Positions 16,901 through 45,500 are shown, numbered from the stretch's first letter. The stretch is 45,658 nucleotides of DNA from Thainema sp. (GCA_052168235.1 JBQLZK010000061.1:1-45658); one strand, 5' to 3'. Notes: generated by a model from the letters alone, not told the origin. Numbers and translations: made by a program.

Positions 16901-17037
16901 AGGGAAACGATATTACGCTTGTGCCAGAGTCCTTCCTGATTAAAGATAAGTAGGACTATGACAGCGCCAGTTTTCTGGGTAAAGCCTTGCGAGATTTATC
17001 CAGAAAACGAAATAGAACACTAAAATGGCATATTTCT

Positions 17038-18831
17038 ATGCGGGGCAGTAGGTTGACGACAATCGCAAAACATCGCGGATTTCAGACAGGACTGCTGCTG
17101 TTATGGTGTGCGATCGCACTTGTGCTGCGCTTCACCCATTTGGCGCAAAAACCGCTGTGGACGGACGAGTTTTCCACGCTGGTATTTGGCTTGGGACATA
17201 GCTTTCAAACCATTCCGCTGGATCAGCCAATCAGCACTGACGTACTGCTGGCACCGCTGCAACCGTTGCCGCTAACCGGAGTTGGGGCCGTTACCTATCA
17301 TTTATTCAGTGAAAGCAACCATCCGCCACTGTACTTCATATTGACCCATGAGTGGCTCAAGCTTTTTCCAATTGAGAATCCGTGGGTATTGACCTGGGCT
17401 GCGCGATCGCTATCGGCTTTGTTTGGGGTTTTGACTGTTCCAGCTATTTTTCTTTTAGGCTGGGTGACATTTCAATCGGTACTGATTGCCCAGCTAGCGG
17501 CGGCGCTGATGGCGGTTTCACCGTTTGGAATTTACATCGCTCAGGAAGCACGACACTACACGCTGCCGACGATGCTGGGTTCTCTCTCCCTTTGCTGTTT
17601 TGTGCAGGCAGTCCGAGCCATTTGCGATCGCACCCGTCTCAACCTGGGGCTGGTTCTGAGCTGGATTGGGCTGAATGCCTTGGGCATTGCCACCCACTAC
17701 TTTTTTGTTTTTGTGGTGACGGCACAGGGCATGGTGCTGCTGGGCTTTTTTCTGTGGCGCAGTTTGGGAACGATGTCTGAAAAGCCATCGAATAAGCTAT
17801 CCGAATTTTGGCAAAGCTGGAGCCGTCCACCCTGGTGGCACGTGTTTGCAGCCGGTCTAGGGACAGCGATTAGCGGTGCCGTCTGGCTACCCGTGATTCA
17901 AAGTGTGCAGGACGATGAGCTGACTTGGTGGATCTATCGGCTTGAAGGTCGCATCGGTCTAGACTGGCTGCAACCCGTGCTGGAAACCGTTGCGGGCGTT
18001 GCCACTATGTTTTTTCTACTGCCGATTCAGGGCACGACTAGAGCTGTTGAAATTGGCTCGATTGGCCTCATGCTGCTGCTGTTAATCTGGCTGGGCGGAG
18101 TTTGGATCAACGGCGTGCGGCAGTATGCCCAATTGCATCGATCAACCCAGCCGCAGGCGAGCCTGTGGGCCACTGGGGGCTTCTTAGCGGCTGCGATCGC
18201 ACTGATGTGGTTTCTATCCTATGCCTTCAATATGAGCCTGACCAATGGCTTTCGCTACAACTTTATCTATTATCCGGCTGCTATTTTACTGTTTGCCGTG
18301 GCGTTGGCCGCAGGTTGGCAAACGACGGGTGGGGGAATAGTGAGATCGCAGCGCTGGACGACTGTCGTAGTTCTGCTCTTGGGCATCGTGGGTAGTCTGG
18401 TGGTGGCGCTGGACTTTGGCTACCAAAAAACCCATCGGCCTGATTTAGTGGTGGATACGCTGTTACAGCAGTCTCAGGATCCGGTGGTGATGGCCATGTC
18501 GCATCAAACCCACGGTCAAACCGGACGCATGATGGGTATTGCGCTAGAACTCCAGCGACGCTCGGGAAATTTGCCGATTCAATCACCGCAGTATATTCTT
18601 GACCATTCTGTCTGCCAGTCCCGATATGATTTGTCCTGCTACAATCCCACTCCCAAACTCAAGGAAACGCTCGCCACGCTGCCGCGTCCCTTTGATCTGT
18701 GGCTGATGAACTACCATAGTGGCGCTAATCTGCGCGATGTCAACTGCGAACCTACAGCTCCCAATGAAACACGGCGCGTAGATGGCTATCGATTTTATCG
18801 ATATCGATGCCAACCGATGACGAAAGGCTGA
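17038..18831 (+). CDS. Membrane GT-C (GT39/PMT-like) glycosyltransferase
   Basis: LWTDEFST, SNHPPLYF, SPFGIYIAQEARHY, many TM segments; start uncertain (ORF open from 16987). Confidence 0.85.
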   Translation: MRGSRLTTIAKHRGFQTGLLLLWCAIALVLRFTHLAQKPLWTDEFSTLVFGLGHSFQTIPLDQPISTDVLLAPLQPLPLTGVGAVTYHLFSESNHPPLYFILTHEWLKLFPIENPWVLTWAARSLSALFGVLTVPAIFLLGWVTFQSVLIAQLAAALMAVSPFGIYIAQEARHYTLPTMLGSLSLCCFVQAVRAICDRTRLNLGLVLSWIGLNALGIATHYFFVFVVTAQGMVLLGFFLWRSLGTMSEKPSNKLSEFWQSWSRPPWWHVFAAGLGTAISGAVWLPVIQSVQDDELTWWIYRLEGRIGLDWLQPVLETVAGVATMFFLLPIQGTTRAVEIGSIGLMLLLLIWLGGVWINGVRQYAQLHRSTQPQASLWATGGFLAAAIALMWFLSYAFNMSLTNGFRYNFIYYPAAILLFAVALAAGWQTTGGGIVRSQRWTTVVVLLLGIVGSLVVALDFGYQKTHRPDLVVDTLLQQSQDPVVMAMSHQTHGQTGRMMGIALELQRRSGNLPIQSPQYILDHSVCQSRYDLSCYNPTPKLKETLATLPRPFDLWLMNYHSGANLRDVNCEPTAPNETRRVDGYRFYRYRCQPMTKG

Positions 18832-28472: not shown

Positions 28473-30245
28473 TCATGACTCTTCATGACAGTGATAGAGC
28501 TGATAGCGATAGCCATAGATGATTTTGGGTGGTGCATCGTCTAGTGCACAGTATTCGTCGATCTCTGTGGGAGCATCGAAGTTCACTAACCAAAAATCGT
28601 TTGGTTCTGCCAAACGGGTCACTGTTGATTTCAGCACGTCAGTTGCCTGACAGTTCTCTTCACAGGGCAGGGCATCCTCATGGGCCAGCAGAAAACGGGG
28701 TTCAACGTCGGTTGCTGCCGATTCTGCTTCGATTTGCCAAGCAACACCCATCATTTCGCCGATGTGAACCAGAGTAGATTGCGTCGTTGCAATCACGACG
28801 GGTGCATTAGAAAGCTGCTGAATTTGGCTAATTAACTGCTCTGGACGGTAGTACTTGCGGTAGCCCAGGTTGTTGCTGACGGTTAATCCTCCGGCTAGAC
28901 CGACCAGCCACAGCGCGATCACGGCATACTTGCCATAGCCTCGCAGAATGGGGGTTGCGATCGCAGTCCACTTGCCTGCATTAGCGGCATCGGGTTTGTG
29001 GCCTGCTCGCGTTACCCACGGTGCAGAACGCCGCCAGCAGGCGGCCAAACTACAGGCTAACAGCGCGATAACGCCCGGAAAATAGACAAAGCTGTAGCGG
29101 GCTCCCCGCGTCAGATCTGCGCCAAAGCCATAGGTGATGATAAAAAACAGCGCGATCGCACCGACAACGAAACCTGTGAATCCTTTTAAAACCGTTTGTT
29201 CTGGCAGACTCTGCCACTGCTGTCGGAATCCGCGCCACAGCAGCGGTAGCATCCACAGAAAGACAACAATCATCGCGGCCCCGGCTGCGATCGCAACTGG
29301 CAGGTTAGACGATTCGACTGGCAGCAGCAGCACCATCGTCACCCAAGCTGCGGCTGCTTGAAACAGGGGATTGATCAGGCTGAGCAGGTTAAAGCCATCG
29401 TCCGACTGAATCCACTGGGTAATCTCGCGGCTGCGAATCGTCAGCCACAGTGGAATCCAAACGGCAATGCCCGCCGCTGTACCCGCCATCGCCAGATAAA
29501 TTCGTGGCCAGGGGGGACTCAGCCACTGATTCACCGTTCGGCCATTGCGGACAACCCCAATGACTATCAGAGCAATTGTCTCTGCGACCAAGGTCAGTAA
29601 AAAGAAAAAGTGAGTGGCTACGCCCAGGCTGTTCACCACAATCCAAGATAGGACTGTCAGCCAAGGCAGCGATCGCTGACGCTGAATCCAGCGCAGAGCA
29701 ATGCCCAAACAGGTCAATGATGCAGTTACCCACACAATACTCAGCGTGTAGTGACGGGCTTCTTGAGCCAGATAGACGCCATAGGGCGACACGGCCATGA
29801 ATGCGGCGGCGAGGTGAGCAATGATTTGCGATCGCAGCGTCACCAACCCTAACCCGTAGATTGCTGGAATCGAGAGAACACCTAGTAACGCAGGCAGCGC
29901 CCGCGCTCCCCACAGCGACACCAAACCCGACTCAGTGGAAAACAACTGGAGCCAGAGATGGGCTAGACCAAAGTAAAACGGCGGATGGACATCCTCACTC
30001 AGCAGGTAGCGCGTCACGTCTGACAAACGAGATGAGTCAACCTGTAAGGGGGCGAGCAGTTGATCCGTCGTGATTATCTGGTCAAGGGGAACCGTTTCAA
30101 AACTGTGGCCCAAGCTAAACACCAACGTGGCAAACTCATCAGTCCAAGGTGCTTTCGCGGCCAAGTTTGCAAATCTGAGGGCGGTGCCAATGGCCACCCA
30201 CGCCAACAACAACGCTAGCTGAAATAAATGATGATTCCACCGCAT
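28473..30245 (-). CDS. Membrane GT-C (GT39/PMT-like) glycosyltransferase, paralogue of 17038-18831
   Basis: PWTDEFATLVFSLGHSF, DVHPPFYF, SPYGVYLAQEARHY, RYSFVYFP. Confidence 0.85.
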   Translation of the reverse strand: MRWNHHLFQLALLLAWVAIGTALRFANLAAKAPWTDEFATLVFSLGHSFETVPLDQIITTDQLLAPLQVDSSRLSDVTRYLLSEDVHPPFYFGLAHLWLQLFSTESGLVSLWGARALPALLGVLSIPAIYGLGLVTLRSQIIAHLAAAFMAVSPYGVYLAQEARHYTLSIVWVTASLTCLGIALRWIQRQRSLPWLTVLSWIVVNSLGVATHFFFLLTLVAETIALIVIGVVRNGRTVNQWLSPPWPRIYLAMAGTAAGIAVWIPLWLTIRSREITQWIQSDDGFNLLSLINPLFQAAAAWVTMVLLLPVESSNLPVAIAAGAAMIVVFLWMLPLLWRGFRQQWQSLPEQTVLKGFTGFVVGAIALFFIITYGFGADLTRGARYSFVYFPGVIALLACSLAACWRRSAPWVTRAGHKPDAANAGKWTAIATPILRGYGKYAVIALWLVGLAGGLTVSNNLGYRKYYRPEQLISQIQQLSNAPVVIATTQSTLVHIGEMMGVAWQIEAESAATDVEPRFLLAHEDALPCEENCQATDVLKSTVTRLAEPNDFWLVNFDAPTEIDEYCALDDAPPKIIYGYRYQLYHCHEES

Positions 30246-31910: not shown

Positions 31911-33221
31911 CTACAGCAAGCGGAGCTGAGTATCGGCGATGTCTACCTCCGTCAGGTAATCCTCCAGCGTCATGTCTGATCCTGGCGTAATCAGCCGACT
32001 ATCTTCGTCTACTCCAGCCAATAAAGCGTGAGCGGCTTCGAGCATCAAAGCAGAGATATCGGTCAGGTCATCGCGATTCGTTAAATAGGTTTCCAGTGCT
32101 GCAATTGGATCGATACTTTGGCCAATGCCCAGTTCTGGCAGGCGCGATCGCACTTGCTGGTTGACCAGCTCTGGATGAATCGTGTAGGTGTGGGCTGGAG
32201 CTAGAGCTGCATGGATTTGGGCCATGTCGATGTCATCGGTTTGCTCAGGCCGGATTTTGTAGTTGAGCCGCACGACGGCATCGGTAATCTCCGCTTTTGC
32301 GATCGCAGCCAGCAGTTTGTCGTGGGGATGCTCGGCTTTTGAAACATCAGTCGTGACGGTTTGAAAGCGGCGGGCTGGCAGAACACAGAATTCGGCCTGC
32401 GCTCGGCCTCGTTCAATGTCAGCCAGGATGTAGCCTTTGTCTTCCTGTTCCTCGCTGAAATCAACTCGCTCGATGCTGCCGGGATAAATTGTCAGCGGCT
32501 GTTCGCTCAGCACTTGATAGGTATGGACATGGCCCAGCGCAATATAGTCAAAACAGTCTCGCGTCAGCACATTCAGCGGCACGGTGAAGCCCTTGCCGAC
32601 GGCTAGAAACCGCTCTGCCCCATAGCGGGCGGTATCCGTCATCAAGTGGGCCAGCAAAATTGTGGGCAATGTTGGATCTAGGCGGCGAATTTCGCCTTCT
32701 AAAGCGGCTCGTAGTCGATCAATCAGCAGATAATTGACATCGGCGAGGGACAATCCCTCTGTTTCCGGTCGGGTCAGCAGCGTGGAGCGGGTCAGCCAGG
32801 GCAGCGTTACCACCTGCACGCTGCCGCTGGCGGTTTCGATCTGATGTGTTTCTAGCCGATCACCCACAATGAAGCCCGGTACGCCGAGGGTGCGATAGAT
32901 GCAGAGACTGGCTCCGCCGACACCTTGGGAATGCTGATCATGGTTGCCAACCAAGAGTACGGTAGGGATTTCGGCATCGACCAGGCGACGAAACTGTCGC
33001 GCAAAGGCTTCCTGGACGAACGGCGGCGGTGTGGCATCGGGAAAGGCGTCGCCACCAAACAGAACCAAATCTACGGGTTCTGCGATCGCACGATCAATAC
33101 AGCGGCCCAGCGTGTTCACGAAGTCCTCTAGGCGGGTGTTTAATCCCGTTTCGGAGTTGACGCGTCCGTGGCAGAAACCACTGCCCATGTGGATGTCGGA
33201 GAGGTGCAAAATTTTAACCAT
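31911..33221 (-). CDS. sbcD: Exonuclease SbcCD subunit D
   Basis: ILHLSDIH, GGDAF, LVGNHD, LAH, YIALGHVH, YPGSIERVDFSE; ATG 33221 preferred. Confidence 0.93.
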   Translation of the reverse strand: MVKILHLSDIHMGSGFCHGRVNSETGLNTRLEDFVNTLGRCIDRAIAEPVDLVLFGGDAFPDATPPPFVQEAFARQFRRLVDAEIPTVLLVGNHDQHSQGVGGASLCIYRTLGVPGFIVGDRLETHQIETASGSVQVVTLPWLTRSTLLTRPETEGLSLADVNYLLIDRLRAALEGEIRRLDPTLPTILLAHLMTDTARYGAERFLAVGKGFTVPLNVLTRDCFDYIALGHVHTYQVLSEQPLTIYPGSIERVDFSEEQEDKGYILADIERGRAQAEFCVLPARRFQTVTTDVSKAEHPHDKLLAAIAKAEITDAVVRLNYKIRPEQTDDIDMAQIHAALAPAHTYTIHPELVNQQVRSRLPELGIGQSIDPIAALETYLTNRDDLTDISALMLEAAHALLAGVDEDSRLITPGSDMTLEDYLTEVDIADTQLRLL

Positions 33222-33358
33222 AGCGGCATCTCTGGCGATTCGTACTGGCAGCTTGTTAACTGTATAGTACGTCGGTATACAGTGCGTTTGCACTCCCCTA
33301 GGTCAAATTCGTGGGTGATGCAGCGATTGCGGCAGTCGGTTCTTGGGGAATTTAAAAA

Positions 33359-33397: not shown

Positions 33398-33415
33398 GTG
33401 CTTGAGTGAGGCTGT

Positions 33416-33616
33416 TTAGAACAAGCCCAACCATTGGAAGAAACCTTGGCCAGTTACTAATTCAACGATTAGCGCACCGAGGAAGCCGACCATTGCTAGG
33501 CGACCATTCCAGAGTTCGGCGCTGGGGTTGGAACCGAATTCGAATTTGGTGCCATACTCGCCATAGGGACGACGAAACTGATCTTCGTAAGTTACGTTGT
33601 CTTGTGGGTTAGTCAT
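33416..33616 (-). CDS. High light-inducible protein (Hli/SCP, chlorophyll a/b-binding family)
   Basis: AELWNGRLAMVGF...VELVTGQG, single TM helix with ExxNxR motif. Confidence 0.95.
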   Translation of the reverse strand: MTNPQDNVTYEDQFRRPYGEYGTKFEFGSNPSAELWNGRLAMVGFLGALIVELVTGQGFFQWLGLF

Positions 33617-33916
33617 AATTGTCTGTCCTGAGTGTGTTCTGATTTATGACAGGTAGGTTTAGCTGGACGACAGAGCCGGATTGGTAGAACCTTGCTCTAG
33701 AGCAGCTTTGGCAAACCCAACTGCGTGTTGTTAATTAACTTAACAATCAGCTCTGCTGCACAAACTCTGTAATCAGAGAGAACAATTTAAAACCATTTTT
33801 CCCTCATCAGCTAGATCTGTGCTGAACTGTAGCCGTTGACACTGAAGCAGTTTTCAAGTGTAGCTAGCGCGATCGCACATTTCATTCCGGCTTCATTCAT
33901 AGCAGCAGCTTAAAGC

Positions 33917-33959
33917 GCGATCGCACTTGTGCATCTGGGGGAATGGAAAGTGCGATCGC
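33917..33959 (-). terminator. HIP1-based inverted repeat downstream of the CU044_2847-like gene
   Basis: gcgatcgcactt (33917-33928) / aagtgcgatcgc (33948-33959). Confidence 0.45.
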
Positions 33960-33974
33960 TATTCCAGGCACCGA

Positions 33975-34325
33975 TCAGTTTGATGTGGTTTGGCCTGGGA
34001 ATTTGCATTTGACTTGAACTTTGAAAGTGCCTTCGGCTGAACTTTCTGCTAAAACTGGCATTCCGGCTTTTCCCGCAATCTTGATATTGAACTCTAAGTT
34101 CATCTCTTCAATTTCCGCTAGACCAAAATTGACAAAGGCCCCAATCGCATATCTAGCATAGCCGCGAATTGTGCTGTGCACCTTCTTCATGTCGAGGGTA
34201 GGCAGGTTAATGTCACGGTAGCTGTCCTCATCGTCAGGTTCAACATCTGCGAGTTCTCCTGATTCAATGTAAAACTCATATTCCTCGCTACCGTCTTTGA
34301 CTACGAATTTTTGCAAATCTGACAT
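33975..34325 (-). CDS. CU044_2847 family / Trypco1-like peptidase co-occurring small protein
   Basis: 116 aa; acidic N terminus (EFYIES), helix TIRGYARYAIGAF, then EEMNLEFNIKIAGKAGMPVLAESSAEGTFKVQVKC (LEFxIKxxGxxGxP pattern); adjacent to a caspase gene. Confidence 0.75.
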   Translation of the reverse strand: MSDLQKFVVKDGSEEYEFYIESGELADVEPDDEDSYRDINLPTLDMKKVHSTIRGYARYAIGAFVNFGLAEIEEMNLEFNIKIAGKAGMPVLAESSAEGTFKVQVKCKFPGQTTSN

Positions 34326-34483
34326 GTGTGACCTCGTCATTAGAAAAGCAATTGGCAAAGTCACTTTAACTGTGCTAGAGGGACTATGAACCAAGAGGGT
34401 TTACAGAAATTTGAGTTTAAAGGATGGTGATCAGTGTGAAACCTAGTTATGCTGACTAAAACAGCAGCCTCACCAGCAGTAGC

Positions 34484-36781
34484 ATGGTTAAGTACGCACT
34501 TATCATTGGTATTAATCAATACGAAAACTTCTCAAATCTAAAGAGTGCAGCACAGGACGCTGAGACTGTAGCCCAACTATTAGAGCAACATCAGTATCAG
34601 GTGACAAGACTGCCCAGAAAATTGGTTAGCGAAAATCAATGGATAGTTGCACCTGATAAAAAGCTAGCTTATGACGAATTCAAAGATGAGCTGATCAAGT
34701 TCTTTCGGGAACGGGCAGAAAATCAAGAGGCTGTTTTATACTTTGCAGGTCACGGATTTCGCCTATTAGATGAACTAACGGAAGATCAAAAAGGCTTCTT
34801 AGCAACTTCTGACACAACGAAGGATGGCCAGAGTGCGATTCCATTCGACTCTCTCAATAAGCTGATGGGCCAAGCCCCTCTGAGTAGTCTCATGGTATTG
34901 ATGGATTGTTGTTATGCAGGAGCAATACTAAAAGAGAGACAAAACCTTTTACAACCGACTCAGACAACCTTAAGCCATAAGCATAATTCTTGTTTGATCG
35001 CAGCTTGTCGTGATTTTGAGCGTGCTAGAGAGAATAAAGAGCATGGTATTTTCACTGCTGCTGTGTTGCGAGGACTTTCAGCCGATAACGCGGTGCAGGG
35101 AGCAGTAACGAGTAATGATCTCTTTGGTTTTGTCGAGCGAGAACTCCGGAATAGTGGGCAAGAAGTGGTTCATGCCGGTATGGGAAGTGCAGTTACTCTT
35201 GTCACTTATCCCGATCCATTAGAGCTTTCGCTTAATCTACCAGCTAATACAGCCAAGGTATTTATCAGCTACCGGAGTCAACCGCCGGATTGTGATTTAG
35301 CAGAGAAATTTTACAAAGCACTGCGAGCTGAGGGCCATGAGGTCTTTATGGCGGCGGAAAGTATTCGTTTAGGTGATAACTGGTCGCAGCGAATTGATCA
35401 TGAATTAGAACAATGCGACTACTTTCTATTGTTATTGTCAGCCCAATCTGCTGTGAGTGAGATGGTGACTAAAGAGGTGCAGCGGGCAAAGGAGTTACGC
35501 GAAACCCGTGAATCTCGAAAGCCTGGAATTTTGCCAATCCGTGTTCAGTTTCCAATTAGCGGATCGATTAACTACGACCTGCAAGGATATCTCGACCAAA
35601 TACAGCAGCGGGAATGGAATTCAGCAGCGGACACTTCTAAGATTTTGGAAGAGGTGTTAACAATTTTAGCCGAGGAGCAAATTCCTGAATCTATAGCTTC
35701 ACAGACTGTTCCTGAGCCTTTAATTGATCATCCAGATAGTCCGCCAGTTCCTGTTGCACCACCAGAGTTACCTGGAGGACAAGTTGACTTAGCATCGCGT
35801 TACTACGTTGAGCGTCCTCCTATTGAAAAAAACTGTTACGAAACAATTTTAAAGCCAGGAGCCTTAATTAGAGTTAAGGCCCCTCGACAAATGGGTAAAA
35901 CATCGTTGATGTCGCGTATCCTGCATCATGCAGGAGAAAATCAGTATCTTACTGTGCCTTTGAGTTTTCAACTGGCCGATGCAGCAATCTTTGCTGATTT
36001 GGACAAATTTCTACGATGGTTTTGCGCCAGTATTGGACGACGGCTGCGACTACCTAATAAACTAGCCGATTATTGGGATGATATTTTTGGCAGCAAAGAC
36101 AACTGTACTGCTTATTTTGAAGAATATCTATTGCCAGAAATTTCTGCACCGTTGGTGTTGGGGTTAGATGAAGTAGATATGGTATTTGAGCATCCCAACA
36201 TTGCGGCAGATTTTATGGGATTGCTGCGAGCGTGGCATGAATCAGCCAAAGTAAATCAGCTTTGGAAGAAGCTACGATTGGTTGTAGTGCATTCAACAGA
36301 AGTTTATATTCCAATGAATATAAACCAGTCTCCCTTCAATGTTGGGTTACCTATTGAGCTAACAGAATTTACAGCAGCACAAATATTGGATTTATCACAA
36401 CGACATGGTTTGGAGTGGCGCAATGATGAAGTAAAGCAGTTAATGGCAATGGTAGGCGGACATCCTTATTTGCTGCGAGTAGCCCTTTACAAAATAGCAA
36501 GACAGGAAACAACTTTAGATGATTTACTCAAAGCTGCTCCTACTGAATCTGGGCCATATGGTGATCATCTACGTCGTCATCTATGGAACCTAGAACAACG
36601 ATCAGAAATGGCAGAAGCCACAAAACGAGTCATGCAATCAGCTCGTCCAGTTCGGCTTGAAGCAATTCAGGCATTTCAGTTACACAGTATGGGCGTTGTT
36701 CACCTAAGAGGGAATGAAGTATTCCCCCGCTGCAATTTGTACCGACAGTATTTTAATGATCGCCTCAGTGTTAGAAATTAA
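34484..36781 (+). CDS. Caspase (peptidase C14)-TIR-AAA_35 (STAND-like NTPase) protein
   Basis: [16 protein letters not shown] (His90), MDCC (Cys143), HGIFT; TIR KVFISY...[17 protein letters not shown] (Glu331); Walker [10 protein letters not shown], Walker B LGLDEVD, QSPFNVG, GGHPYL. Confidence 0.9.
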
Positions 36782-36807
36782 AGCTTAATATTCAGAAAAG
36801 CAAGCTT

Positions 36808-38415
36808 ATGAACTACGAAATCAATAAATATGAGTACCAAGTTGGGGGTAGCTTACCTGCAGAATCACCAACATACGTAAAACGAAAGGCAGATGATGAG
36901 CTTTTTGACAAACTTAAGGCAAGTGAATTTTGTTACGTGTTTAATTCACGCCAAATGGGCAAATCAAGTTTGCGAATCCGGGTGAAAAAGCGTTTAGAAT
37001 CTGAAGGAATTGTTTGTGGAGAACTTGATCTCCAGCAAATTGGAAGCCATGACCTAACTCCAGAACAGTGGTATGCAGGCGTTATAAGAAATTTATCTAG
37101 GAGTTTTCGTCTTCAGTCTCAAATAAATTTGCCGACTTGGTTGCGTGAAAGAAATCATCTATCTCCTGTTCAAAGACTATCAGAATTTATTGAAGATGTT
37201 CTTCTTAAGAAGATACCAGGAAAAATCGTTGTATTTATTGATGAAATCGACACAATTTTGGATCTCAATTTTCAAACTGATAGTTTTTTTGCTCTCATTC
37301 GGAATTTATTAGATGAGAGAGGCAGTAAGATGGCTTATGAACGAGTATCATTTTGTCTGCTTGGAGTTGCAATACCTAGCAGCTTAATTCAAGATAAATC
37401 TCGCACCCCATTTAATATAGGATACTCAATAGAGTTACAGGGTTTTCAGTTAAATGAGGCTGAACCACTGATTCATGGATTAAAATCTCATGCCGAAGAC
37501 CCACAAGCCGTAATGAGATCCATTTTAAAATGGACAGGAGGTCAGCCATTTTTAACTCAAAAGATATGCAATATAGTAACTAACAGCGCAGACATAATTT
37601 GCAAAAAAGACGAAGAAAATCGAATCAAAAAGATTATAAGCCTTTATATTACGAAGAACTGGAAGCAAAATGACGAGCCAATGCACCTCAGAGTTATTGA
37701 ACACCGAATACTTCAAAATCCTCAGAAAGCGAATCGTTTACTTAGCTTATACCAAAAAATCATTTTAAAGAGAAACAAGATTCTTATTGAAGAATCAGAG
37801 GAACAGCTTGAGCTTTCGCTTTCAGGACTAGTGGTGAAAAAAGGAGGAAAGCTAGAAGTTCAAAATAAAATATACAGAAAAGTTTTTTCTCAGGCATGGA
37901 TTAGAAGGAGCCTAGAAAATATACAGCCAAATCATAATAAATATATCAATTGGCTAAAATCCAACAAAAAAAATGAATTGTTGCTTCTGAGTGGAGAAGA
38001 ATTGAACTGCCTCCTAGAGTGGGCAGAAGATAAGGATCTAAGTTCACAGCTGTACTCCTATATATTAAGCAGTTTGCAGAAGCAAAAGGTTGAAATTGAA
38101 GCTGAATATAGGAAATTCCAGGGTTTGCTTTTGGTTGAAGAAAAGCTGAAAACTGATATCGAACAGAAGTCTTTAAAAGAAGTTAGTTCATATCAAGCCA
38201 GATTAGAGCAAGCCCTGAGTTTATTTAGGAAGTTTAGATATGTTCTTGTATTATCAATCATCATTCTGGTAACCAACGTAGCATCGTTGTTTTTTTATGT
38301 GAGTGAAGAAAGAATGAGTGTAATTTTAAGCATGCTATCTGCAATTTTGTTTAGTTCTTTGTCAGTGAAATTCATAAAAGAAATTATTGAAAAGCAACAA
38401 CAGAATATAACTTAA
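36808..38415 (+). CDS. AAA_35 NTPase with coiled coil and two C-terminal TM helices
   Basis: [47 protein letters not shown]; hydrophobic [21 protein letters not shown] and [16 protein letters not shown] at the C terminus. Confidence 0.88.
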
Positions 38416-38477
38416 AAGAAAGTGCCTGTACGGGTTTCATATCACATCGCGATTAAAGAGTAGTGAGGTGAAAAGTT

Positions 38478-41400
38478 ATGAGTGGCAATACTAACAACTA
38501 TGAATATCAAGTTGGTGGTAGTTTACCACCTAATTCACCAACCTATGTAAAACGGCGGGCAGATGATGATTTATATACAAAGCTTACAGCTGGTGAGTTT
38601 TGTTATGTACTGAACTCACGTCAAATGGGAAAGTCTAGTTTACGTGTGCAAACAATGCAGCGGTTAAAGGCTGAAGGAATTGCGTGTGCAGTAATTGATA
38701 TTACGGCTATTGGGAGTCAGAACATTAGTGCAGATCAATGGTATGCAGGAATAATTCGTAGTCTTACTACAAACTTTAATTTAGCACGAAAAGTTAATCT
38801 TCGAACTTGGCTACGCGAAAGAGATTTTTTGACTCCCATTCAGCGGCTAGGAGAATTTATTGAGTTTATTTTACTTGAAGAAATTGATCAACCTATAGTT
38901 GTTTTTATAGATGAGATTGATGGTGTACTCAGCTTTCAATTTTCCATTGATGATTTTTTTGCTTACATCCGTTTCTGTTCAAATCAACGTGTCGATAAAC
39001 CTATCTATAAAAAATTAACATTTTGTTTATTGGGTGTTGCGGCTCCAGCGGCTTTAATTCAAGATAAAAGACGAACACCGTTTAATATTGGTCATGCTAT
39101 TCCGTTAAGAGGTTTTCAATTTGACGAAGCACGATCATTGACTTTGGGACTACAAAAGAAAGCCGAAAATCCGGAATCCGTTCTCCAAGAAATTTTGGTT
39201 TGGACAGGGGGACAGCCTTTTTTAACTCAGAAAGTTTGCGATTTAGTGCGATCACTCAATGTGTTTATTCATACTAAAGATGAGGTGGCCAGCATTGCTC
39301 ATCTTGTGCGAACTCATATTATTGATAGCTGGGAAAATCAAGATGAGCCAGAGCATTTAAGAACTATCAGAGATAGATTGCTAAGCGATGAGAAAAAAAC
39401 GGGAAGCTTATTAAGTATCTATCAGCAGGTTTTACAAAAAGGATCAATTTATACCGATGGTAGTCAGGAGCAGACAGAATTACGTTTGTCAGGATTAGTA
39501 TTTGAGCAAAATGGAAAATTAAGAGTATATAATCGTATATACGAACTGATTTTTAGCAAAAATTGGATTGACTCAACTTTGGCTAATCTAAGACCCTACG
39601 CTGAAGCTTTAGCCGCTTGGATAAATTCTAGTTATACCGATAGTTCTCGCCTACTAAGAGGGCAAGCTCTACGAGATGCCTTAGTCTGGTCTTCTAACAA
39701 AAGTTTGAGCATTTCAGATTATAGTTTTTTATCTGCAAGTCAATCTCTAGAGAGAGAGATGATGCAGGCTGAGCTACGAGCTCAGCAAAAAGCTAATCGA
39801 ATTTTAGAAAAGGCAAAGCAGAAAGTAGAGCTAGCACTACAACAAGAACAGCAAGCAAAGCAGAAAATGCTTGAAGCAGAGCATCAATCAGCACAGGCAA
39901 TGCAAAGATTAGAACTTGCTTTGGAACAAGAAAGAAGGATTGAAGCCAAAGTATTAAAGTCAGAAAAGAAGTCTTTCCCAACTAAACACGACAAACACAA
40001 GAAAGATCGAACTCCTTTTGTGGGTTTTAGCATAGCCGTATTTCTCTTGGCAGCAGCGATTGGGCAACGGTTTTATAACGAACCCAAACTAACGGTTGGA
40101 ACAGTCGCTCCGCAGACCTTCGTTGCTCCTGAAAATGCTACTATCACCGATGAAGCAGCAACTGCGGAGCGGCGGCGTGCAGCAGAAAACGGTTCGCTTA
40201 AAATTCTTATGATTGATTCAGCTGCCGACCAAGCGATTTTGAATCGGCTCCAACAGCTTCTGAATCAGGGTACACAAATTCGGCAAAATCCAGAAATTCT
40301 TACACAAGAAGAACTGCAAGATTCTTCATTTTTTTATTTACATGGTGAAACATTACTCAATTTTTCTAGTGCGGAATGGTGGGAAACACAAACAGCTATC
40401 CGAGATATTGTTCAAGAAATACTTGCGGGAGGAATTGCTCAGGGTACTCCTGATTCAGTCTTACAGAGAGCCGTTGATTGGCAAGTTGAGTCATCTGTTC
40501 CTGCAAAAGCACAGTCTTTCGCAACTAAATTGATTTTGGAGGTGCTAAAACCCAATCTAATTGAAGATTCAGAGCAGACGCGGATGGCAGCGCAACGGGC
40601 AGCGCAAGCGGTTGATCCGGTTCAGTACACTGTGCAGGAGGGGGGCACTATCGTGGCCGTGGGTGAGGAAATCACCCAGGAAACCTTTGTTGTTTTGGAC
40701 TATTTTGGCCTCAGTCGTCGGGGAGTAAATTGGATTGGCTTTGTTGGCTTTGGCATTGCGATCACAGGTTCAGTGACGCTCTTTCTTTGGGTTGAGCAGA
40801 CATTTTATTTAGGCTTACGTCACCGCGATCACATTCTGCTCTTTCTCTTAGCGCTCAGCACTCCCGTTGTAGCAGTCGTCAACAGCTCAATTGTGACCTT
40901 ACCCGCTGTGGGACTCCTGACGGGTAGCTTCTATGGGTCAATCTTGAGCGTTACCGTGGTTGGCCTGCTGGCAGTGCTGCTGCCGATTGGGCTCGAACTG
41001 AGCATGGTGCCCTTCATTGCAGCGGCAGCAGGTGGCATTGTGGGCGGCATCATGGCGGGGCGGTTGCGATCGCGAGAAGAACTGGCGCTGTTGGGTGGAG
41101 CCGTAGGCTTGACCCAAGCGGTTGTTTATCTGCTGCTGACGCTGATTTTCACCGGCGGTAGCAGTCCCATTTGGTATTTGCTCATTGCTAATTCTGCTTG
41201 GCATGGCTTTATAGGGCTGGCTTGGAGCGTGGTGGCGCTGGGGATTAGCCCGTATTTAGAGCATGTATTCGACTTGGTTACGGCCATTCGACTGGCTGAA
41301 CTGTCCAATCCCAATCGCCCGCTGCTCAAGCGATTTGCCTATGAGGCTCCGGGTACATTCCAACATACAATGTTTGTCGCCTCTTTAGCTGAAGCGGCAG

Positions 41401-41996
41401 CGCGAGCATTGAACTGCAATGTGGAACTGGTGCGGGCAGGCACGCTCTACCATGACATCGGCAAGATGCACGATCCGCTGGGCTTTATTGAAAATCAGAT
41501 GGGTGGCCCCAACAAGCACGACGAAATTAATGACCCTTGGAAAAGTGCAGTCATTATCAAGAAGAATGTAACCGAAGGAATTGTGATGGCGAAAAAGTGC
41601 CGTCTGCCTAAGGCGGTACGAGCCTTTATTCCTGAGCATCAGGGTACAATGCTGATCACTTACTTCTACCATCAAGCCCAGCAGATGGCCGAAACCGATT
41701 CCACTATCATCTTGAATGAGCAAGACTTTCGGTATGATGGCCCTATTCCCCAATCCCGTGAAACTGGCATTGTGATGTCAGCTCATTACTGCGCAAAATC
41801 ACTACGACTGCTTAAAGCTTTTGATCCTATTGAAGCTCTAAAGGCAGTTCATCAAGTGTTACAGTATCTTGATAAGGATGGACAACTTCTAGATTCAGGT
41901 CTTCGTCAAAAAGAACTAGATCAGATTGCTGACATCTTTGTACAGGTTTGGTTACAGTCTCAGTGGAGCGGGAATTTGCTGAGTACTTCTAAATGA
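38478..41996 (+). CDS. AAA_35 NTPase-coiled coil fused to a PgpH-like 7TM-HD (HDIG) module
   Basis: Same AAA_35 motifs; Q/E/A/K-rich coiled coil; from ~40006 a TM, QRFYNEPKL, extracellular region, multiple TMs, RLAELSNPNRPLL, APGTFQH, YHDIGK, FIENQ, EHQGT, FRYDGPIPQSRETGIVM; single uninterrupted 1172-aa ORF. Confidence 0.9.
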   Translation: MSGNTNNYEYQVGGSLPPNSPTYVKRRADDDLYTKLTAGEFCYVLNSRQMGKSSLRVQTMQRLKAEGIACAVIDITAIGSQNISADQWYAGIIRSLTTNFNLARKVNLRTWLRERDFLTPIQRLGEFIEFILLEEIDQPIVVFIDEIDGVLSFQFSIDDFFAYIRFCSNQRVDKPIYKKLTFCLLGVAAPAALIQDKRRTPFNIGHAIPLRGFQFDEARSLTLGLQKKAENPESVLQEILVWTGGQPFLTQKVCDLVRSLNVFIHTKDEVASIAHLVRTHIIDSWENQDEPEHLRTIRDRLLSDEKKTGSLLSIYQQVLQKGSIYTDGSQEQTELRLSGLVFEQNGKLRVYNRIYELIFSKNWIDSTLANLRPYAEALAAWINSSYTDSSRLLRGQALRDALVWSSNKSLSISDYSFLSASQSLEREMMQAELRAQQKANRILEKAKQKVELALQQEQQAKQKMLEAEHQSAQAMQRLELALEQERRIEAKVLKSEKKSFPTKHDKHKKDRTPFVGFSIAVFLLAAAIGQRFYNEPKLTVGTVAPQTFVAPENATITDEAATAERRRAAENGSLKILMIDSAADQAILNRLQQLLNQGTQIRQNPEILTQEELQDSSFFYLHGETLLNFSSAEWWETQTAIRDIVQEILAGGIAQGTPDSVLQRAVDWQVESSVPAKAQSFATKLILEVLKPNLIEDSEQTRMAAQRAAQAVDPVQYTVQEGGTIVAVGEEITQETFVVLDYFGLSRRGVNWIGFVGFGIAITGSVTLFLWVEQTFYLGLRHRDHILLFLLALSTPVVAVVNSSIVTLPAVGLLTGSFYGSILSVTVVGLLAVLLPIGLELSMVPFIAAAAGGIVGGIMAGRLRSREELALLGGAVGLTQAVVYLLLTLIFTGGSSPIWYLLIANSAWHGFIGLAWSVVALGISPYLEHVFDLVTAIRLAELSNPNRPLLKRFAYEAPGTFQHTMFVASLAEAAARALNCNVELVRAGTLYHDIGKMHDPLGFIENQMGGPNKHDEINDPWKSAVIIKKNVTEGIVMAKKCRLPKAVRAFIPEHQGTMLITYFYHQAQQMAETDSTIILNEQDFRYDGPIPQSRETGIVMSAHYCAKSLRLLKAFDPIEALKAVHQVLQYLDKDGQLLDSGLRQKELDQIADIFVQVWLQSQWSGNLLSTSK

Positions 41997-42065
41997 TAGG
42001 CGGTGTTTATTAGCAGTTCTTGCTGGTTTTTAGTTGCTTTAGTTTTGATTGTCAGTAACCTCGTA

Positions 42066-42094
42066 TTGACTCCACCGGGCAAATCCCGTACTGT
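42066..42094 (+). promoter_or_regulatory. Sigma70-type promoter
   Basis: TTGACT (42066-42071) - 17 nt - TACTGT (42089-42094); predicted start near 42101, immediately before a hairpin. Confidence 0.7.
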
Positions 42095-42100
42095 GAAACG

Positions 42101-42335
42101 TTAAGTTGTCGAGCGAACCATCACCAAATCGCCTCGACAGCCGGACACCAGAAATCTAGTCAACGCCACCCAGAGTTGCTGGCACAACCCTGAGCGGCTG
42201 ACCTGCTAAACGTTGGAACTAGCAACGCGCAGGCTTGGGTAATTGTAGCCTCAGCCGCTCTGCATTGCACTTCAAAGTTGCAGGGGGGCTAGGTTTTTGG
42301 CTTTCCTCCGAACGTCAAAAACCAAAGGAAACACA
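42101..42335 (+). ncRNA. Candidate structured cis-regulatory leader RNA
   Basis: Complementary segments 42105-42116/42129-42141, 42148-42159/42289-42300, 42192-42201/42251-42260, 42202-42206/42229-42233, 42292-42301/42314-42323, and anti-SD 42302-42307 / SD 42326-42331. Confidence 0.55.
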
Positions 42336-42620
42336 ATGACATACTTAATCTCTGGTGCTGCTCCCCACGCAGCGCCACAGCCTCGCGCGGCTCATCCTGA
42401 CCAGCCCCAGCGCCACGGTCGCCATCCGCTGCGGATTATCCTGCTCGGCACCCGCCCCGACATCATTGTCACGATCAAAAACCTGCATCGACGCGGCTTT
42501 GCCGAAGCGAACGAGTGGAGCCAACCGATCCCCTGTCCCAGTGCAGGCGACGTGGCGCGAATTCTGGCTCAGCGGCAACCGGATGATCAAATCAGCATCC
42601 TCACCCGCTATCTCAGCTAG
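42336..42620 (+). CDS. Small hypothetical protein (94 aa)
   Basis: RBS aaagga before ATG 42336; RHPLRIILLG...TIKNLHRRGFAEANEWSQPIP...ISILTRY resembles a recurrent cyanobacterial hypothetical family (from memory, not searched). Confidence 0.75.
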   Translation: MTYLISGAAPHAAPQPRAAHPDQPQRHGRHPLRIILLGTRPDIIVTIKNLHRRGFAEANEWSQPIPCPSAGDVARILAQRQPDDQISILTRYLS

Positions 42621-42622
42621 TT

Positions 42623-42970
42623 GCCCTCACCCTAAATCCCTCTCCCAGTGCGGGCTACTGCTTATATACAAGCCTTCTAGACTTCGTTTTGACATTGAGA
42701 TCCCCCTAAATCCCCCTTAAAAAGGGGGAACCTGCTCAAAGTTCCCCCTTACTTCGTTTTGACATTGAGATCCCCCCTAGCCCCCCTTAAAAAAGGGGGA
42801 ACCTGCTCAAAGTTCCCCCTTTTTAAGGGGGATTTAGGGGGATCAGTCAGGGTTTAGAAGAACCACTTAGATGTGTATAAACAGTAGCCCAGTGCGGGAA
42901 AGGGACTTTGAAAGACCAACCTTCTGGCTCTCCTTCTCCTGTGGGGGAAAGGGCTGGGGGATGAGGGCAA
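42623..42970. repeat. Outer dispersed hairpin repeat split by an inner MITE
   Basis: gccctcaccctaaatccctctccc... and ...gggaaagggactttgaa...gggctgggggatgagggcaa; the halves rejoin at cccagtgcggg. Confidence 0.75.
42654..42888. mobile_element. MITE-like element with TIRs, target-site duplication and internal 70-bp tandem duplication
   Basis: Ends gctactgcttatataca / tgtgtataaacagtagc; flanking direct repeat cccagtgcggg (42644-42654 and 42888-42898; 9-11 bp depending on end choice); duplicated unit at 42681-42750 and 42751-42821. Confidence 0.8.
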
Positions 42971-43291
42971 TTAAACAAATTCTCTCCTGTGATAGAGAGA
43001 CAATTAGGGGAAAAAGACCGAATCTAAAATATCGAAACTCCATCGAACAACTCCTATCAGTCATCATCTGCGAGTCGGTGATTCGGGTTGCTCGTGAGTT
43101 GCCAAATCTACCTGTGAAAACCAACGTGAATTCCGTAGAAGTCCCGCCGCGCGAGACTCCCATGAAATTCAACTTTCAAGTTTTGCAGTTGATTGAGCAG
43201 CCGAGCAGATAGGACAACAACCAGTTCAAACGACATCAGCGGCCAGGAATTCAGTTTCCTGGCCCTTCTCTATAAAAGCAACATTACATAC

Positions 43292-45412
43292 ATGCTTGTA
43301 TTTTTAGTTGAACCCATTTCAGAAACACTCCAGGAGCCGATTACCACCTTCGCGCTGCTGATTGCGATTGTCCTGATTACGCCGCCGCTGTTTGAGCGGA
43401 TTAAGCTGCCCGGACTGGTGGGCCTGTTGGCCGCAGGCGTCTTATTTGGTGGCAGTGGTTTAGGCTGGCTCAACGCCGACTCCGAAACCATGAAGCTGTT
43501 TTCCGAAATCGGCAAAATCTACCTGATGTTTGTGGCAGGACTAGAAATTGACCTGGCCCTGTTCCAAAAAACGCGCAACCGCTCAATGGGCTTCGGCTTC
43601 TTGACCTTTGCCATTCCCCTACTGGGCGGCATCGGCATCGGTTTGCTGTTTGGCTTTGGCTGGCTGGCTGCTGTCCTAATTGGTTCACTGCTAGCTTCCC
43701 ACACGCTGCTGGCCTATCCCATCGTGCAGCGACTCGGCGTCGTCGGTGATGAAGCCGTCACCGTCACCGTGGGCGCAACTATCTTCACCGATATCGGTTC
43801 GCTGCTGGTGCTGGCGATCTGCTTGGGGATTAGCCAAGGCGACTTTTCGGCCTTGAAGCTAATCACGCTGCTGGGGTCGCTGGCACTATATGCGATCGCA
43901 GTTTTATTTGGCCTTAAGCAGCTCGGTAAAGCCTTTTTCCGCCGTACGGGCAAAGATGAGGGCAACCAGTTCCTATTTGTCATGCTCTCTGTCTTTCTCT
44001 GTGCCCTGGTCGCTCAGCTCATCGGTGTTGAAAATATCATTGGTGCTTTCCTGGCCGGACTCGCGATCAATAGCGTGATTGGCGATGGCCCCGTGAAGGA
44101 AAAAACGGAGTTTATGGGCAGCGTCCTGTTTATTCCGCTGTTTTTCGTCAATATGGGACTGCTGCTGGATCTGAATGCTTTTGAGAGTATTCTGTCCTCA
44201 GTTGAGTTGCCTCTACTGGTTGTCGCCGTACTGCTATTGACCAAGCTGTTGGCGACGCTGGGTGCGCGGCAGATGTTTCACTACTCCTGGCCGCAAACCT
44301 GGACAATGTGGTCACTCTCCATTCCGCAAGTTGCGGCAACGCTGGCGGCAGCACTGGTGGGTTATGAAGCGGAAATTATTAACTCGCAGGTCTTCAACAG
44401 CGTCATTTTGCTGATGCTGGTCACGGCCATTCTGGGGCCGTTGGTCACGGCCAATGCCGCGCGGCAACTGGCGGTACAGGAATCATTTGATGAGCATGAG
44501 CTGCTTGACTGGTTGCCGCCACCCAGCGACATTCCCGAATCGTTCTCCATTGTGGTGCCCGTTTATAACCCCAATACGGAGCATTCGCTGATCGAGCTGG
44601 CCGCTACCGTTGCCCGCTACAAAAATGGCCGCGTCATTCCCTTAGCCATTGCCCTTGCCCAACCCCAGATGGATTCTCCCCAGCTGGCTCGTGCTGTTGC
44701 CCTCAGTCGGCAGCGACTGGAAGCAGCGCAGATGATCAGCGAAAAGTTTGAGGCCAATATTGACCCCAAGCTGAGAATTGAATACAACGTGGCTCAGGCG
44801 GTTTGCCACGTCAGCCGCGAAGAAAACGCCAATCTGATTATCCTGGGCATGGGGCAGCAGGCTAGATTTAACCGCTATCTGTTCAGCAATATCCAAGACG
44901 ATGTGCTGTGGGCGGCTCACTGTCCGGTGATTGTGGCGCGGCTGCTGGAGTCACCAACTCAGTTCAAATCCATCTTGGTGCCGATTGAAAATCCATCCAT
45001 GCTGGCCTTACGGGCGCTGCGATTTGCCCAGGTACTTGCGGCAGCGAACGAGGGACAAATTACGCTGCTGCACGTTTGCAGTCCACGCGCCTCTCAAATT
45101 CGTAAAACCCGCTTGCAGAAGCAGCTTGAGACGCTGGTGGATCGGCTGCCTGCCGCAAATTGTCCAATCAACATTCAGCTACTGGCTTGCGACAATGTGG
45201 TTAGCACGATTGCGAAAAATGCACAGGATCATGACTTGGTGATTCTGCGATCGCAGCGTCGCCGCAGCGGGAATGGTCTAACCATTGGTGCAAACACCAC
45301 GCCGCTACTGGAACGGCTCAACGGATCGGTGATTCTAGTCGGTGAACCGCATCCCCAGCGGGTGCTGCGTCCAATTCGCCGCAATGCCTTACCGAATTTG
45401 ATGCCTGTTTGA
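43292..45412 (+). CDS. Cation:proton antiporter (CPA2/Kef-type, NhaS5-like) with C-terminal USP domains
   Basis: LPGLVGLL, LMFVAGLEID, ASHTLLAYPI, TIFTD, IIGAFLAGLA, FIPLFFVNMG, QVAATLAA; two USP-like repeats (IVVPVYNP...AHCPVIVAR; ILVPIEN...); ATG 43292 preferred. Confidence 0.92.
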   Translation: MLVFLVEPISETLQEPITTFALLIAIVLITPPLFERIKLPGLVGLLAAGVLFGGSGLGWLNADSETMKLFSEIGKIYLMFVAGLEIDLALFQKTRNRSMGFGFLTFAIPLLGGIGIGLLFGFGWLAAVLIGSLLASHTLLAYPIVQRLGVVGDEAVTVTVGATIFTDIGSLLVLAICLGISQGDFSALKLITLLGSLALYAIAVLFGLKQLGKAFFRRTGKDEGNQFLFVMLSVFLCALVAQLIGVENIIGAFLAGLAINSVIGDGPVKEKTEFMGSVLFIPLFFVNMGLLLDLNAFESILSSVELPLLVVAVLLLTKLLATLGARQMFHYSWPQTWTMWSLSIPQVAATLAAALVGYEAEIINSQVFNSVILLMLVTAILGPLVTANAARQLAVQESFDEHELLDWLPPPSDIPESFSIVVPVYNPNTEHSLIELAATVARYKNGRVIPLAIALAQPQMDSPQLARAVALSRQRLEAAQMISEKFEANIDPKLRIEYNVAQAVCHVSREENANLIILGMGQQARFNRYLFSNIQDDVLWAAHCPVIVARLLESPTQFKSILVPIENPSMLALRALRFAQVLAAANEGQITLLHVCSPRASQIRKTRLQKQLETLVDRLPAANCPINIQLLACDNVVSTIAKNAQDHDLVILRSQRRRSGNGLTIGANTTPLLERLNGSVILVGEPHPQRVLRPIRRNALPNLMPV

Positions 45413-45416
45413 TATA

Positions 45417-45500
45417 GCCCTCATCCCCCAGCCCCTTCTCCCAAAATGGGCGAAGGGGAACCGAAACTATAGCCTGCTCAAAGTCCCTCTCCTACTCTGG
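45417..45500. repeat. Second copy of the outer hairpin repeat, inverted relative to the first and again interrupted
   Basis: gccctcatcccccagccc is the reverse complement of 42951-42968; the copy ends at tccctctcctactctgg. Confidence 0.7.

Follow-up and report, generated by a model that had tools for sequence, protein, structure and literature searches.

The DNA analyzed here, referred to as the window, is one whole contig (C61) of 45,658 nucleotides (45.7 kb) from a draft genome of Thainema sp. (GCA_052168235.1, JBQLZK010000061.1; genome size 7.54 Mb in 205 contigs). Toward its end lies a gene in which a predicted nucleoside triphosphatase (NTPase) of the STAND class (signal transduction ATPases with numerous domains) is joined in frame to a membrane module that resembles PgpH, the phosphodiesterase of cyclic di-AMP (c-di-AMP). 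This fusion gene is the last of three co-directional genes separated by gaps of 26 and 62 nt (Table 1). The first encodes P0003, a caspase–TIR–AAA_35 protein that ends 7 residues after its NTPase and has no C-terminal sensor; the PADLOC caspase and TIR models match it as well. The second encodes P0002, which is 48% identical to residues 1–467 of the fusion and carries the helix and two C-terminal hydrophobic segments (within residues 470–523) with no sensor domain. A small Trypco1/Pepco-type gene diverges from this operon, and by analogy its product is likely to be a protease-activated pore-forming effector. These Pfam assignments of the adjoining genes agree with the immune-type setting proposed in an earlier interpretation made from the DNA alone (the sequence-only reading). 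A scan for promoters and terminators returned nothing above shuffled controls.

Table 1. Position of the fusion gene, its parts, and the adjoining genes in the window.
Feature	Position	Strand	Basis or remark
Fusion gene	38478..41996	+	single uninterrupted reading frame, ATG start, 1172 aa
AAA_35 (MNS-clade STAND) NTPase module	38517..39557	+	Pfam PF14516, residues 14-360, E 9.8e-30
Long helical (coiled-coil-like) linker	39711..39962	+	residues 412 to ~495; AF2 helix 412-479 reaches model end
TM helix 1	40011..40073	+	residues 512-532; hydrophobic segment; PgpH homology starts just upstream
7TMR-HDED extracellular domain	40095..40718	+	Pfam PF07697, residues 540-747, E 1.9e-46
Seven-TM domain 7TM-7TMR_HD	40731..41282	+	Pfam PF07698, residues 752-935, E 3.1e-24
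HD domain	41355..41705	+	Pfam, residues 960-1076, E 1.8e-10
Youngest predicted gene-conversion tract, ~620 nt	40560..41182	+	DNA 92-100% identical to housekeeping pgpH
Codon of His1103 at last conserved HD Asp	41784..41786	+	aligned to Asp of 'ISDSVEA', Listeria PgpH 4S1B
Diverged C-terminal tail, ~70 residues	41778..41993	+	low GC3; DNA 38-56% identical to housekeeping copy
Trypco1/Pepco-type small protein, 139 aa	33975..34394	-	Pfam Trypco1, E 4e-15; divergent from operon
Type-3 partner P0003 ('executor')	34484..36781	+	Pfam: caspase 3-222, TIR 259-357, AAA_35 430-758
Type-1 AAA_35 paralogue P0002, 535 aa	36808..38415	+	Pfam AAA_35, E 2.4e-30

The sequence-only reading had described one continuous frame that links AAA_35 and a coiled coil of about 90 amino acids to a transmembrane (TM), extracellular, multi-TM, and HDIG region, and the reading frame call, Pfam, and NCBIfam all bear this out. 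The AAA_35 profile (PF14516), a STAND family profile, scores 103.9 bits against a cut-off of 27, and all four Pfam matches of the fusion lie far above their own cut-offs. In the C-terminal part, a TM helix precedes an extracellular domain that covers positions 2–224 of the 224 in the 7TMR-HDED profile; the 7TM-7TMR_HD profile follows (positions 1–190 of 190), with hydrophobic segments clustered at residues 752–903, and then an HD domain that NCBIfam recognizes as HDIG (residues 957–1056, E 2.3e-23). This is the TM helix, extracellular domain, and seven-TM layout of PgpH. Given one plus seven membrane passes, the NTPase and the HD domain would both lie on the cytoplasmic side. In the AlphaFold2 (AF2) model, the coiled coil is one long helix running from residue 412 to the modeled end at residue 480, and the alignment shows the same long helix in AAA_35 relatives of the fusion's own type (type 1). 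Homology to PgpH begins near residue 500 in the protein and at position 40033 in the DNA (69% identity there), which places the joint between helix and PgpH part at about 39960–40030, close to the 39950–40010 first proposed. Ten further database proteins from independent sources have the identical domain order (P0005-P0008, P0015-P0017, P0025, P0128, and P0135), one of them from Lusitaniella coriacea (WP_426776314.1). The architecture, which the sequence-only reading did not know from the literature, is therefore rare but not unique.

The NTPase has the Walker A (G51-K52-S53) and Walker B (D145-E146) motifs of a P-loop NTPase, with G51, K52, D145, and E146 invariant in 33/33 aligned sequences. 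Its AF2 model (residues 1–480; pLDDT 90, pTM 0.79) shows the NTPase core, helical, and winged-helix layout of STAND/ORC-like ATPases. The closest known structures are the archaeal proteins PABY2304 and SSO1545 (2qen, 2fna; VIA-align Z 19.7, 314 residues aligned, root-mean-square deviation 4.2–4.3), followed by plant nucleotide-binding leucine-rich repeat (NLR) resistosomes (Z 16–16.6; wheat 9h2l 16.6), Cdc6/ORC (14–15), MalT (14.4), and CED-4 (13.1), and then, at Z 12.4–12.9, by EfAvs5, NAIP/NLRC4, Avs3 (12.4), and ZAR1; Foldseek puts the same proteins on top. This ranking, from SSO1545/PABY2304 through NLR resistosomes to Avs proteins, agrees with the STAND-type N-terminal module of the sequence-only reading, and the modeled NTPase fits the MNS clade of STAND NTPases. 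We conclude that the protein combines a P-loop NTPase, predicted to be cytoplasmic and intact in both Walker motifs, with a membrane paralogue of PgpH, the two being linked by a long helix. A PADLOC scan gave no match to the AAA_35 parts of the fusion or of P0002, so these parts belong to none of its curated defense-system models (Avs, bNACHT); the sole PADLOC match on the fusion is a weak one of a Cas3b HD model to the HD motif (E 4.6e-4).

Origin of the PgpH module

The seven-TM profile PF07698 matches two places in the genome, the fusion gene and a stand-alone pgpH of 867 aa on another contig (C5). Since this second pgpH is intact, the possibility that the fusion is the genome's only PgpH, acting as a normal phosphodiesterase, falls away. 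To place the module we built a tree of its core (50 rows, with stand-alone PgpH proteins sampled as 41 of 98 database matches, the first 12 and then every third). The fusion is sister to the housekeeping PgpH of its own genome (support 98), and both fall within the clade of stand-alone PgpH proteins of close relatives (support 100). With a core 97% identical to that enzyme, the view of the C-terminal 670 residues as a captured copy of a host enzyme holds, and a domain copied from a host protein is also what an integrated decoy carries. Forcing the eight fused cores into a single clade costs 186 log-likelihood units and is rejected (approximately unbiased (AU) test, p 0.00015); a single clade of the seven others is not rejected (AU p 0.19). 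The NTPase of the fusion groups with those of the fusions P0015, P0025, and P0016 (support 96). Because the two trees place them differently, the two halves of the protein have different histories.

Identity to the housekeeping PgpH varies along the protein: it is 64% over residues 520–690, 97% over residues 695–1100, and 44% over residues 1101–1165, and the fusion lacks the first ~105 residues of the housekeeping protein together with ~110 residues of a lineage-specific extracellular insert. The 14 amino acid differences over 406 core residues fall mostly on the fusion lineage (9, compared to 4 on the housekeeping lineage and 1 ambiguous). At the DNA level the core forms an ungapped block of 1348 nt with 87.5% identity, in which the rate of synonymous change (dS) is 0.56, that of nonsynonymous change (dN) is 0.037, and dN/dS is 0.065 (449 codons). 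We conclude that the PgpH-like module is under purifying selection.

Within the core, the conversion tract of Table 1 contains a run of 191 identical nucleotides (40992–41182), a length reached in 0/20000 shuffles of the mismatches (longest shuffled run 130). The ~150 nt after the tract have ~75% DNA identity without any amino acid change (a stretch of 50 codons), and identity in the HD part is 76–94%. The GC content at third codon positions (GC3) is 0.54 in the tract and 0.54–0.575 in the housekeeping gene, compared to 0.26–0.30 in the flanks of the fusion on both sides. We also made a three-way comparison with the one genome of the same genus (G465). In the young tract, the fusion is 0.92–1.00 identical to its own housekeeping gene, while that gene is 0.66–0.90 identical to its orthologue; the three distances in the HD part are similar, and over the extracellular part and the tail it is the fusion that stands apart from the other two. 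Given this mosaic of identity, the three-way layers, and the GC3 contrast, the simplest reading is gene conversion: an older low-GC fusion gene would have had its middle overwritten by the resident housekeeping pgpH, probably more than once. A tree of the tail (75 columns) places the eight fusions on one side of a branch (support 71), with long branches and neither of two placements rejected (AU p 0.53 and 0.63), and the tails of the fusion and of P0016 have a deletion of 5 residues in common.

A second fusion can be compared in the same manner. Over TM helix 1, the extracellular domain, and the early seven-TM part, the module of P0006 shares ~90% identity with a stand-alone PgpH encoded on a metagenome contig, and two stand-alone pgpH genes compared over this range are 75–80% identical. 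These values suggest that capture or conversion of a PgpH module has occurred in this second lineage too.

In a draft genome of 205 contigs, the 191-nt stretch identical to the other copy could also have led to a false fusion of an AAA_35 gene with the housekeeping pgpH during assembly. We regard such an assembly artefact as highly improbable for the following reasons: There is no repeat at the joint that might mislead an assembler, and the DNA common to the other pgpH copy starts downstream of it, with over 500 nt separating the joint from the first high-identity DNA. Differences from the housekeeping copy are present on either side of the identical run, and the far flanks both have the low GC3 of the fusion, with no template switch visible. 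Finally, the same joint architecture is found in the ten independent fusions.

Partner gene, HD site, and candidate functions

To see how AAA_35 genes are arranged elsewhere, we surveyed the 78 best AAA_35 loci from species-representative genomes; because several contigs end early, the pair count is a lower bound. A gene of the P0003 type (type 3) lies within 3 kb of a gene of the fusion type in at least 51 of the 78 loci. The partner is upstream on the same strand in 48 of these 51, and it stops 0–5 aa past its AAA_35 match in 47 of the 48 and 26 aa past it in the remaining one. Among 45 partner N-termini scanned, some of which have two domains, we found TIR (17), CHAT (12), trypsin (6), protein kinase (3), HTH-type (5), and cyclase (1) domains, and none was recognized in 9. 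The C-termini of type-1 proteins, among the 73 listed of 76 scanned, are WD40 (33), Peripla_BP_6 (5), CHASE2 (5), GAF (5), GUN4 (4, two with WD40), HisKA-HATPase (2), CHAT (2), TRADD-N (2), and five singletons, with 12 lacking a domain; trypsin and TPR also occur, and PgpH is absent (0/73). Such variable sensor or adaptor modules attached to an NTPase are typical of STAND proteins. In the Thainema genome itself there are 8 strong (type-3) and 9 weak (type-1) AAA_35 matches, and each of the eight type-3 genes is followed within 3.5 kb by a type-1 gene on its own strand. These eight pairs of effector–AAA_35 and AAA_35–sensor genes are on contigs C4, C13, C23, C33, C77, C105, and C61, and the open frames of the genome's 18 PF14516 matches span 372–1468 aa. 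Cyanobacterial plasmids carry type-1 AAA_35 genes as well (44 plasmids, of which 18 are classed as mobilizable or conjugative); on a plasmid of Allocoleopsis franciscana PCC 7113 (NC_019740.1, e.g. 81760–85122), several genes annotated as 'AAA-like domain-containing protein' are clustered.

We conclude that the fusion and its caspase–TIR–AAA_35 partner are genetically linked and, judged by this arrangement, make a candidate sensor/executor pair. The fusion has no effector of its own, and the upstream gene, which the sequence-only reading had not connected with it, most likely supplies one.

We compared the HD columns across 42 stand-alone PgpH proteins (the genome's own and the 41 sampled database matches). 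Eight columns (H, H, D, H, D, H, Q, D), which from the HD-superfamily and PgpH literature we take to be the metal ligands, are invariant in 42/42. The fusion matches seven of the eight, and the final Asp is replaced by His1103, three residues beyond where the conserved block ends. Every fusion with an HD region (9/9) has one or more substituted ligands, compared to 0/42 stand-alone proteins; the eight other such fusions have lost one to six ligand columns, and in 8/8 the first His is Gln or Tyr. These losses mean that the fusion family as a whole is not selected for hydrolysis, and the HD site of the Thainema fusion looks nearly restored as a by-product of gene conversion.

Seven matching ligand columns, and a whole pocket that up to residue 1100 is of the active housekeeping type, are what one would expect if the PgpH part were an enzymatic output, with the NTPase toggling hydrolysis of c-di-AMP or a related nucleotide as a signaling or growth-arrest effector. 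Purifying selection on the module is strong, the genome makes c-di-AMP (one diadenylate-cyclase, or DAC-domain, gene), and some type-1 relatives have enzyme-like C-terminal modules. However, the Asp that is invariant in all stand-alone enzymes is His in the fusion, the ligand losses in the eight other HD-bearing fusions argue that hydrolysis is not a conserved function of the family, and an intact pgpH is already present in the genome. We therefore judge a regulated phosphodiesterase unlikely in general; for the Thainema fusion it stays alive, as one ligand differs.

We consider it probable that the fusion serves as the sensor arm of the pair in one form or another. Among the forms, an envelope or extracytoplasmic receptor is the leading candidate, put forward with reserve; a decoy or guard appears unlikely, and a nucleotide sensor somewhat more so. 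The fuller claim, which places this sensor arm in a conflict or cell-death module built from paired STAND proteins (AAA_35, MNS clade), is our working proposal, held with a little less than even confidence. In this proposal, the PgpH-derived part would be a signal input and no longer mainly a phosphodiesterase. The extracellular and seven-TM receptor part would be the most likely route of input, because CHASE2 and periplasmic-binding sensors are common in sister proteins and because the fusion family conserves this part while the HD domain decays; a nucleotide bound in the damaged HD pocket, or a foreign attacker of PgpH, would be less likely inputs. The signal would switch the NTPase to an oligomerizing state, and the activated fusion would co-assemble with the sensor-less caspase–TIR–AAA_35 protein encoded upstream. 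The protease of this partner might then cleave the neighboring Pepco/Trypco1 pore former and its TIR domain degrade NAD+, resulting in cell death or arrest.

Several observations weigh against this proposal. Since no PADLOC model fits the AAA_35 parts, the pair is not an established defense system. HisKA-HATPase, CHAT, and trypsin domains among the type-1 C-termini show that these modules are not always sensors, and the PgpH part could be an output. With seven of eight HD ligand columns intact and a His that can bind metal at the eighth, the Thainema fusion may still hydrolyze c-di-AMP. Finally, the extracellular domain is the most diverged part of the Thainema fusion, yet in P0006 it is the part closest to a housekeeping copy; with such opposite patterns, there is no consistent picture of which subdomain matters.

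The near identity of the core to the resident enzyme allows another account, the one given by the sequence-only reading, of an integrated decoy or guard: the PgpH copy would mimic the housekeeping enzyme, a phage factor directed at PgpH or at c-di-AMP homeostasis would trip the NTPase, and gene conversion would keep the bait matched. In addition to the 97% identity, this account would explain why the module was refreshed after the species split (DNA 92–100% identical to its own copy compared to 66–90% between orthologues), why catalytic ligands have decayed in 9/9 fusions with an HD domain, as in pseudo-enzyme baits, and why its partner is an executor that lacks a sensor, much as in the sensor/helper NLR pairs of plants. 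The ~90% identity of the P0006 module to a stand-alone PgpH extends the likeness to a second lineage, and the model has already been proposed for a bacterial NLR-like protein (PMC11702601). On the other side, gene conversion between paralogues needs no selective reason, the other fused cores are 41–58% identical to the Thainema core and have long branches, so that close mimicry is not a family trait, and the extracellular domain of the Thainema fusion has diverged and carries a deletion. We know of no phage factor that targets PgpH. In the phage collection, the PgpH-like matches are HD-only and confined to 8 records from Listeria, Enterococcus, or fecal sources, with no cyanophage among them, and the search gave no candidate for a PgpH-targeting factor. 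We therefore think a decoy or guard improbable, though less so than a regulated enzyme. The specific version in which the fusion would be the prokaryotic equivalent of an integrated decoy in plant NLRs, with a blunted PgpH as bait for invaders that tamper with c-di-AMP, recurrent conversion, and recruitment of the caspase–TIR executor, is slightly more doubtful than the decoy idea at large. Decayed HD ligands and conserved extracellular and seven-TM parts fit a 'borrowed receptor' at least as well as a 'decoy'.

Distribution of the fusion and its neighborhood

With a query spanning the junction, we found the fusion in 1/401 genomes of the class, namely this one, and not in 39 genomes of the same family or in the one genome of the same genus; nor is it among the 78 AAA_35 loci surveyed above. 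Six fusions are among the best 150 matches in 1.84 billion representative proteins. A scan of metagenomes with P0006 returned 80 loci, three of which have PgpH-like matches, all of them stand-alone genes. PF07698 itself is found in 366/401 genomes of the phylum, and eight of these, including the Thainema genome, have two matches. Of the seven others with two matches, four were examined as possible carriers: G180, G278, and G378, all of family f7, each hold two stand-alone pgpH paralogues (frames of 774–937 aa) and no fusion, and G026 (two matches), like the same-family genome G264 (one match), has a single PgpH-like place and no fusion. Over the DNA examined, none of the AAA_35 proteins of 1152–1192 aa from genus g82 is a PgpH fusion.

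In G465 the flanks of the locus (window 33415–33959 and 42050–45492) are syntenic with 87–95% identity, and between them, at the place of window 33960–42049, is a different insert of 3.5 kb that encodes a NACHT-GUN4 protein (826 aa; C16, 4800–7280 in the extracted locus). In the window, the island at 33.9–40 kb has a GC content of 0.35–0.45 compared to about 0.5 around it. We conclude that this is a variable hotspot, occupied by STAND genes in both genomes. GUN4, which binds porphyrins and regulates chlorophyll synthesis, is a second host-type domain found repeatedly on STAND NTPases: it ends P0027 and, among the 73 listed of 76, four type-1 AAA_35 proteins.

A gene this rare, absent from the same-genus genome and located in a variable island, might be a functionless accident, that is, a recent recombinant between AAA_35 and duplicated pgpH genes, not yet purged by selection. 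This is hard to reconcile with a dN/dS of 0.065 and 50 codons at ~75% DNA identity without an amino acid change, with a frame intact across 1172 codons, with the recurrence of the architecture in ten other proteins, and with the low-GC3 flanks (0.26–0.30), which show that the PgpH-like part has long been resident in the gene. We consider an accident quite improbable.

Other features of the window are noted here for completeness. Downstream of the fusion, window 42050–42647 is 93% identical to the same-genus genome, compared to 88.8% for the neighboring antiporter gene; it holds short reading frames only, with no Pfam matches, and may contain a small gene or RNA. Two paralogous polytopic membrane proteins of 614 and 590 aa, with no Pfam match, are encoded at 16987–18831 (+) and 28473–30245 (−), one of them adjoining a PMT_2-type glycosyltransferase gene (18845–21607), and a strong AT skew marks both regions. 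A response-regulator receiver joined to an HD-GYP-type HD_5 domain (14014–15159, +) is likely a c-di-GMP phosphodiesterase and is unrelated to the fusion. The G465 orthologue (C35:40523–41854) of the metallophosphatase gene at 31911–33293 has one in-frame TGA.

Comparison with known systems

The nearest relatives of the pair are the paired MNS-clade STANDs of cyanobacterial conflict systems, the Npun2340/2341 family (Leipe et al., 2004, as cited in Kaur et al., 2021, PMC8195603). Kaur et al. describe this family as the central NTPase of counter-invader systems, in which the head may be a TIR, caspase, trypsin, or kinase domain. The fusion belongs to the same Pfam family, its fold is nearest to archaeal MNS-type ATPases, and the two-gene layout is the same, with an effector–NTPase gene followed by an NTPase–variable module gene and TIR, caspase/CHAT, trypsin, or kinase effectors. 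Paired MNS-clade STAND modules with variable sensors are thus already described, and the difference lies in the C-terminal module: a PgpH copy, as seen here, is found in none of the 73 listed relatives (of 76) and in none of the 78 loci.

Compared to PgpH itself (Listeria Lmo1466, PDB 4S1B; Synpcc7942_0779), the fusion has all the domains in the same order, and its HD domain matches 4S1B with E 1.7e-34. Unlike PgpH, it has ~500 aa of NTPase and helix in place of the N-terminal cytoplasmic tail, it is without ~110 aa of the extracellular domain, its last HD Asp is His, and its C-terminal 70 aa have diverged.

A third parallel is offered by Pepco (the Trypco1/2 proteins), reported to be a pore-forming toxin that a neighboring protease activates and releases; the proteases linked to it are fused to sensors that include 'transmembrane STAND ATPases' (bioRxiv 10.1101/2025.11.14.688446). 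As in the SsPepco-SsAvs4 modules, the Trypco1/Pepco gene of the Thainema locus adjoins a protease fused to a STAND NTPase. Unlike in these modules, protease and sensor are on separate NTPase proteins, and the AAA_35 parts have no Avs/PADLOC match.

In the literature searched, we found no report of a fusion of PgpH to a STAND or AAA_35 NTPase, or of ongoing exchange between a sensor and a housekeeping gene. Bacterial STAND/NLR-like receptors are known to detect phage proteins with sensor domains dedicated to that task; one that uses for this purpose a copy of a housekeeping enzyme, still in exchange with its original, is, within that literature, apparently undescribed. If the module is a decoy or guard, an idea from plant immunity would extend to bacteria, and c-di-AMP turnover would be pointed out as a phage target. 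If it is instead a borrowed receptor, it would give a handle on the signal sensed by the extracellular and seven-TM part of PgpH. In either case, a pair of sensor-only and effector-only STAND proteins would let NAIP/NLRC4-like or sensor/helper logic be studied in a compact prokaryotic model.

The last comparison is with plant NLRs. Plant paired NLR genes are arranged head-to-head, whereas the genes here are co-directional, and the NTPase belongs to a different clade. The likeness is to integrated-decoy NLRs: a domain copied from a host protein, with catalytic or native features lost, is built into a STAND NTPase whose genetic partner is a second STAND protein bearing the effector. The plant example is RRS1-WRKY with its partner RPS4 (Cesari et al., 2014, as cited in PMC11702601), and in that source the integrated-decoy idea for a bacterial NLR-like protein is so far raised as a hypothesis. 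Unlike in plant decoy NLRs, the integrated PgpH domain still exchanges sequence with its original, and the resulting mosaic offers a natural experiment in what gene conversion does to such a domain.

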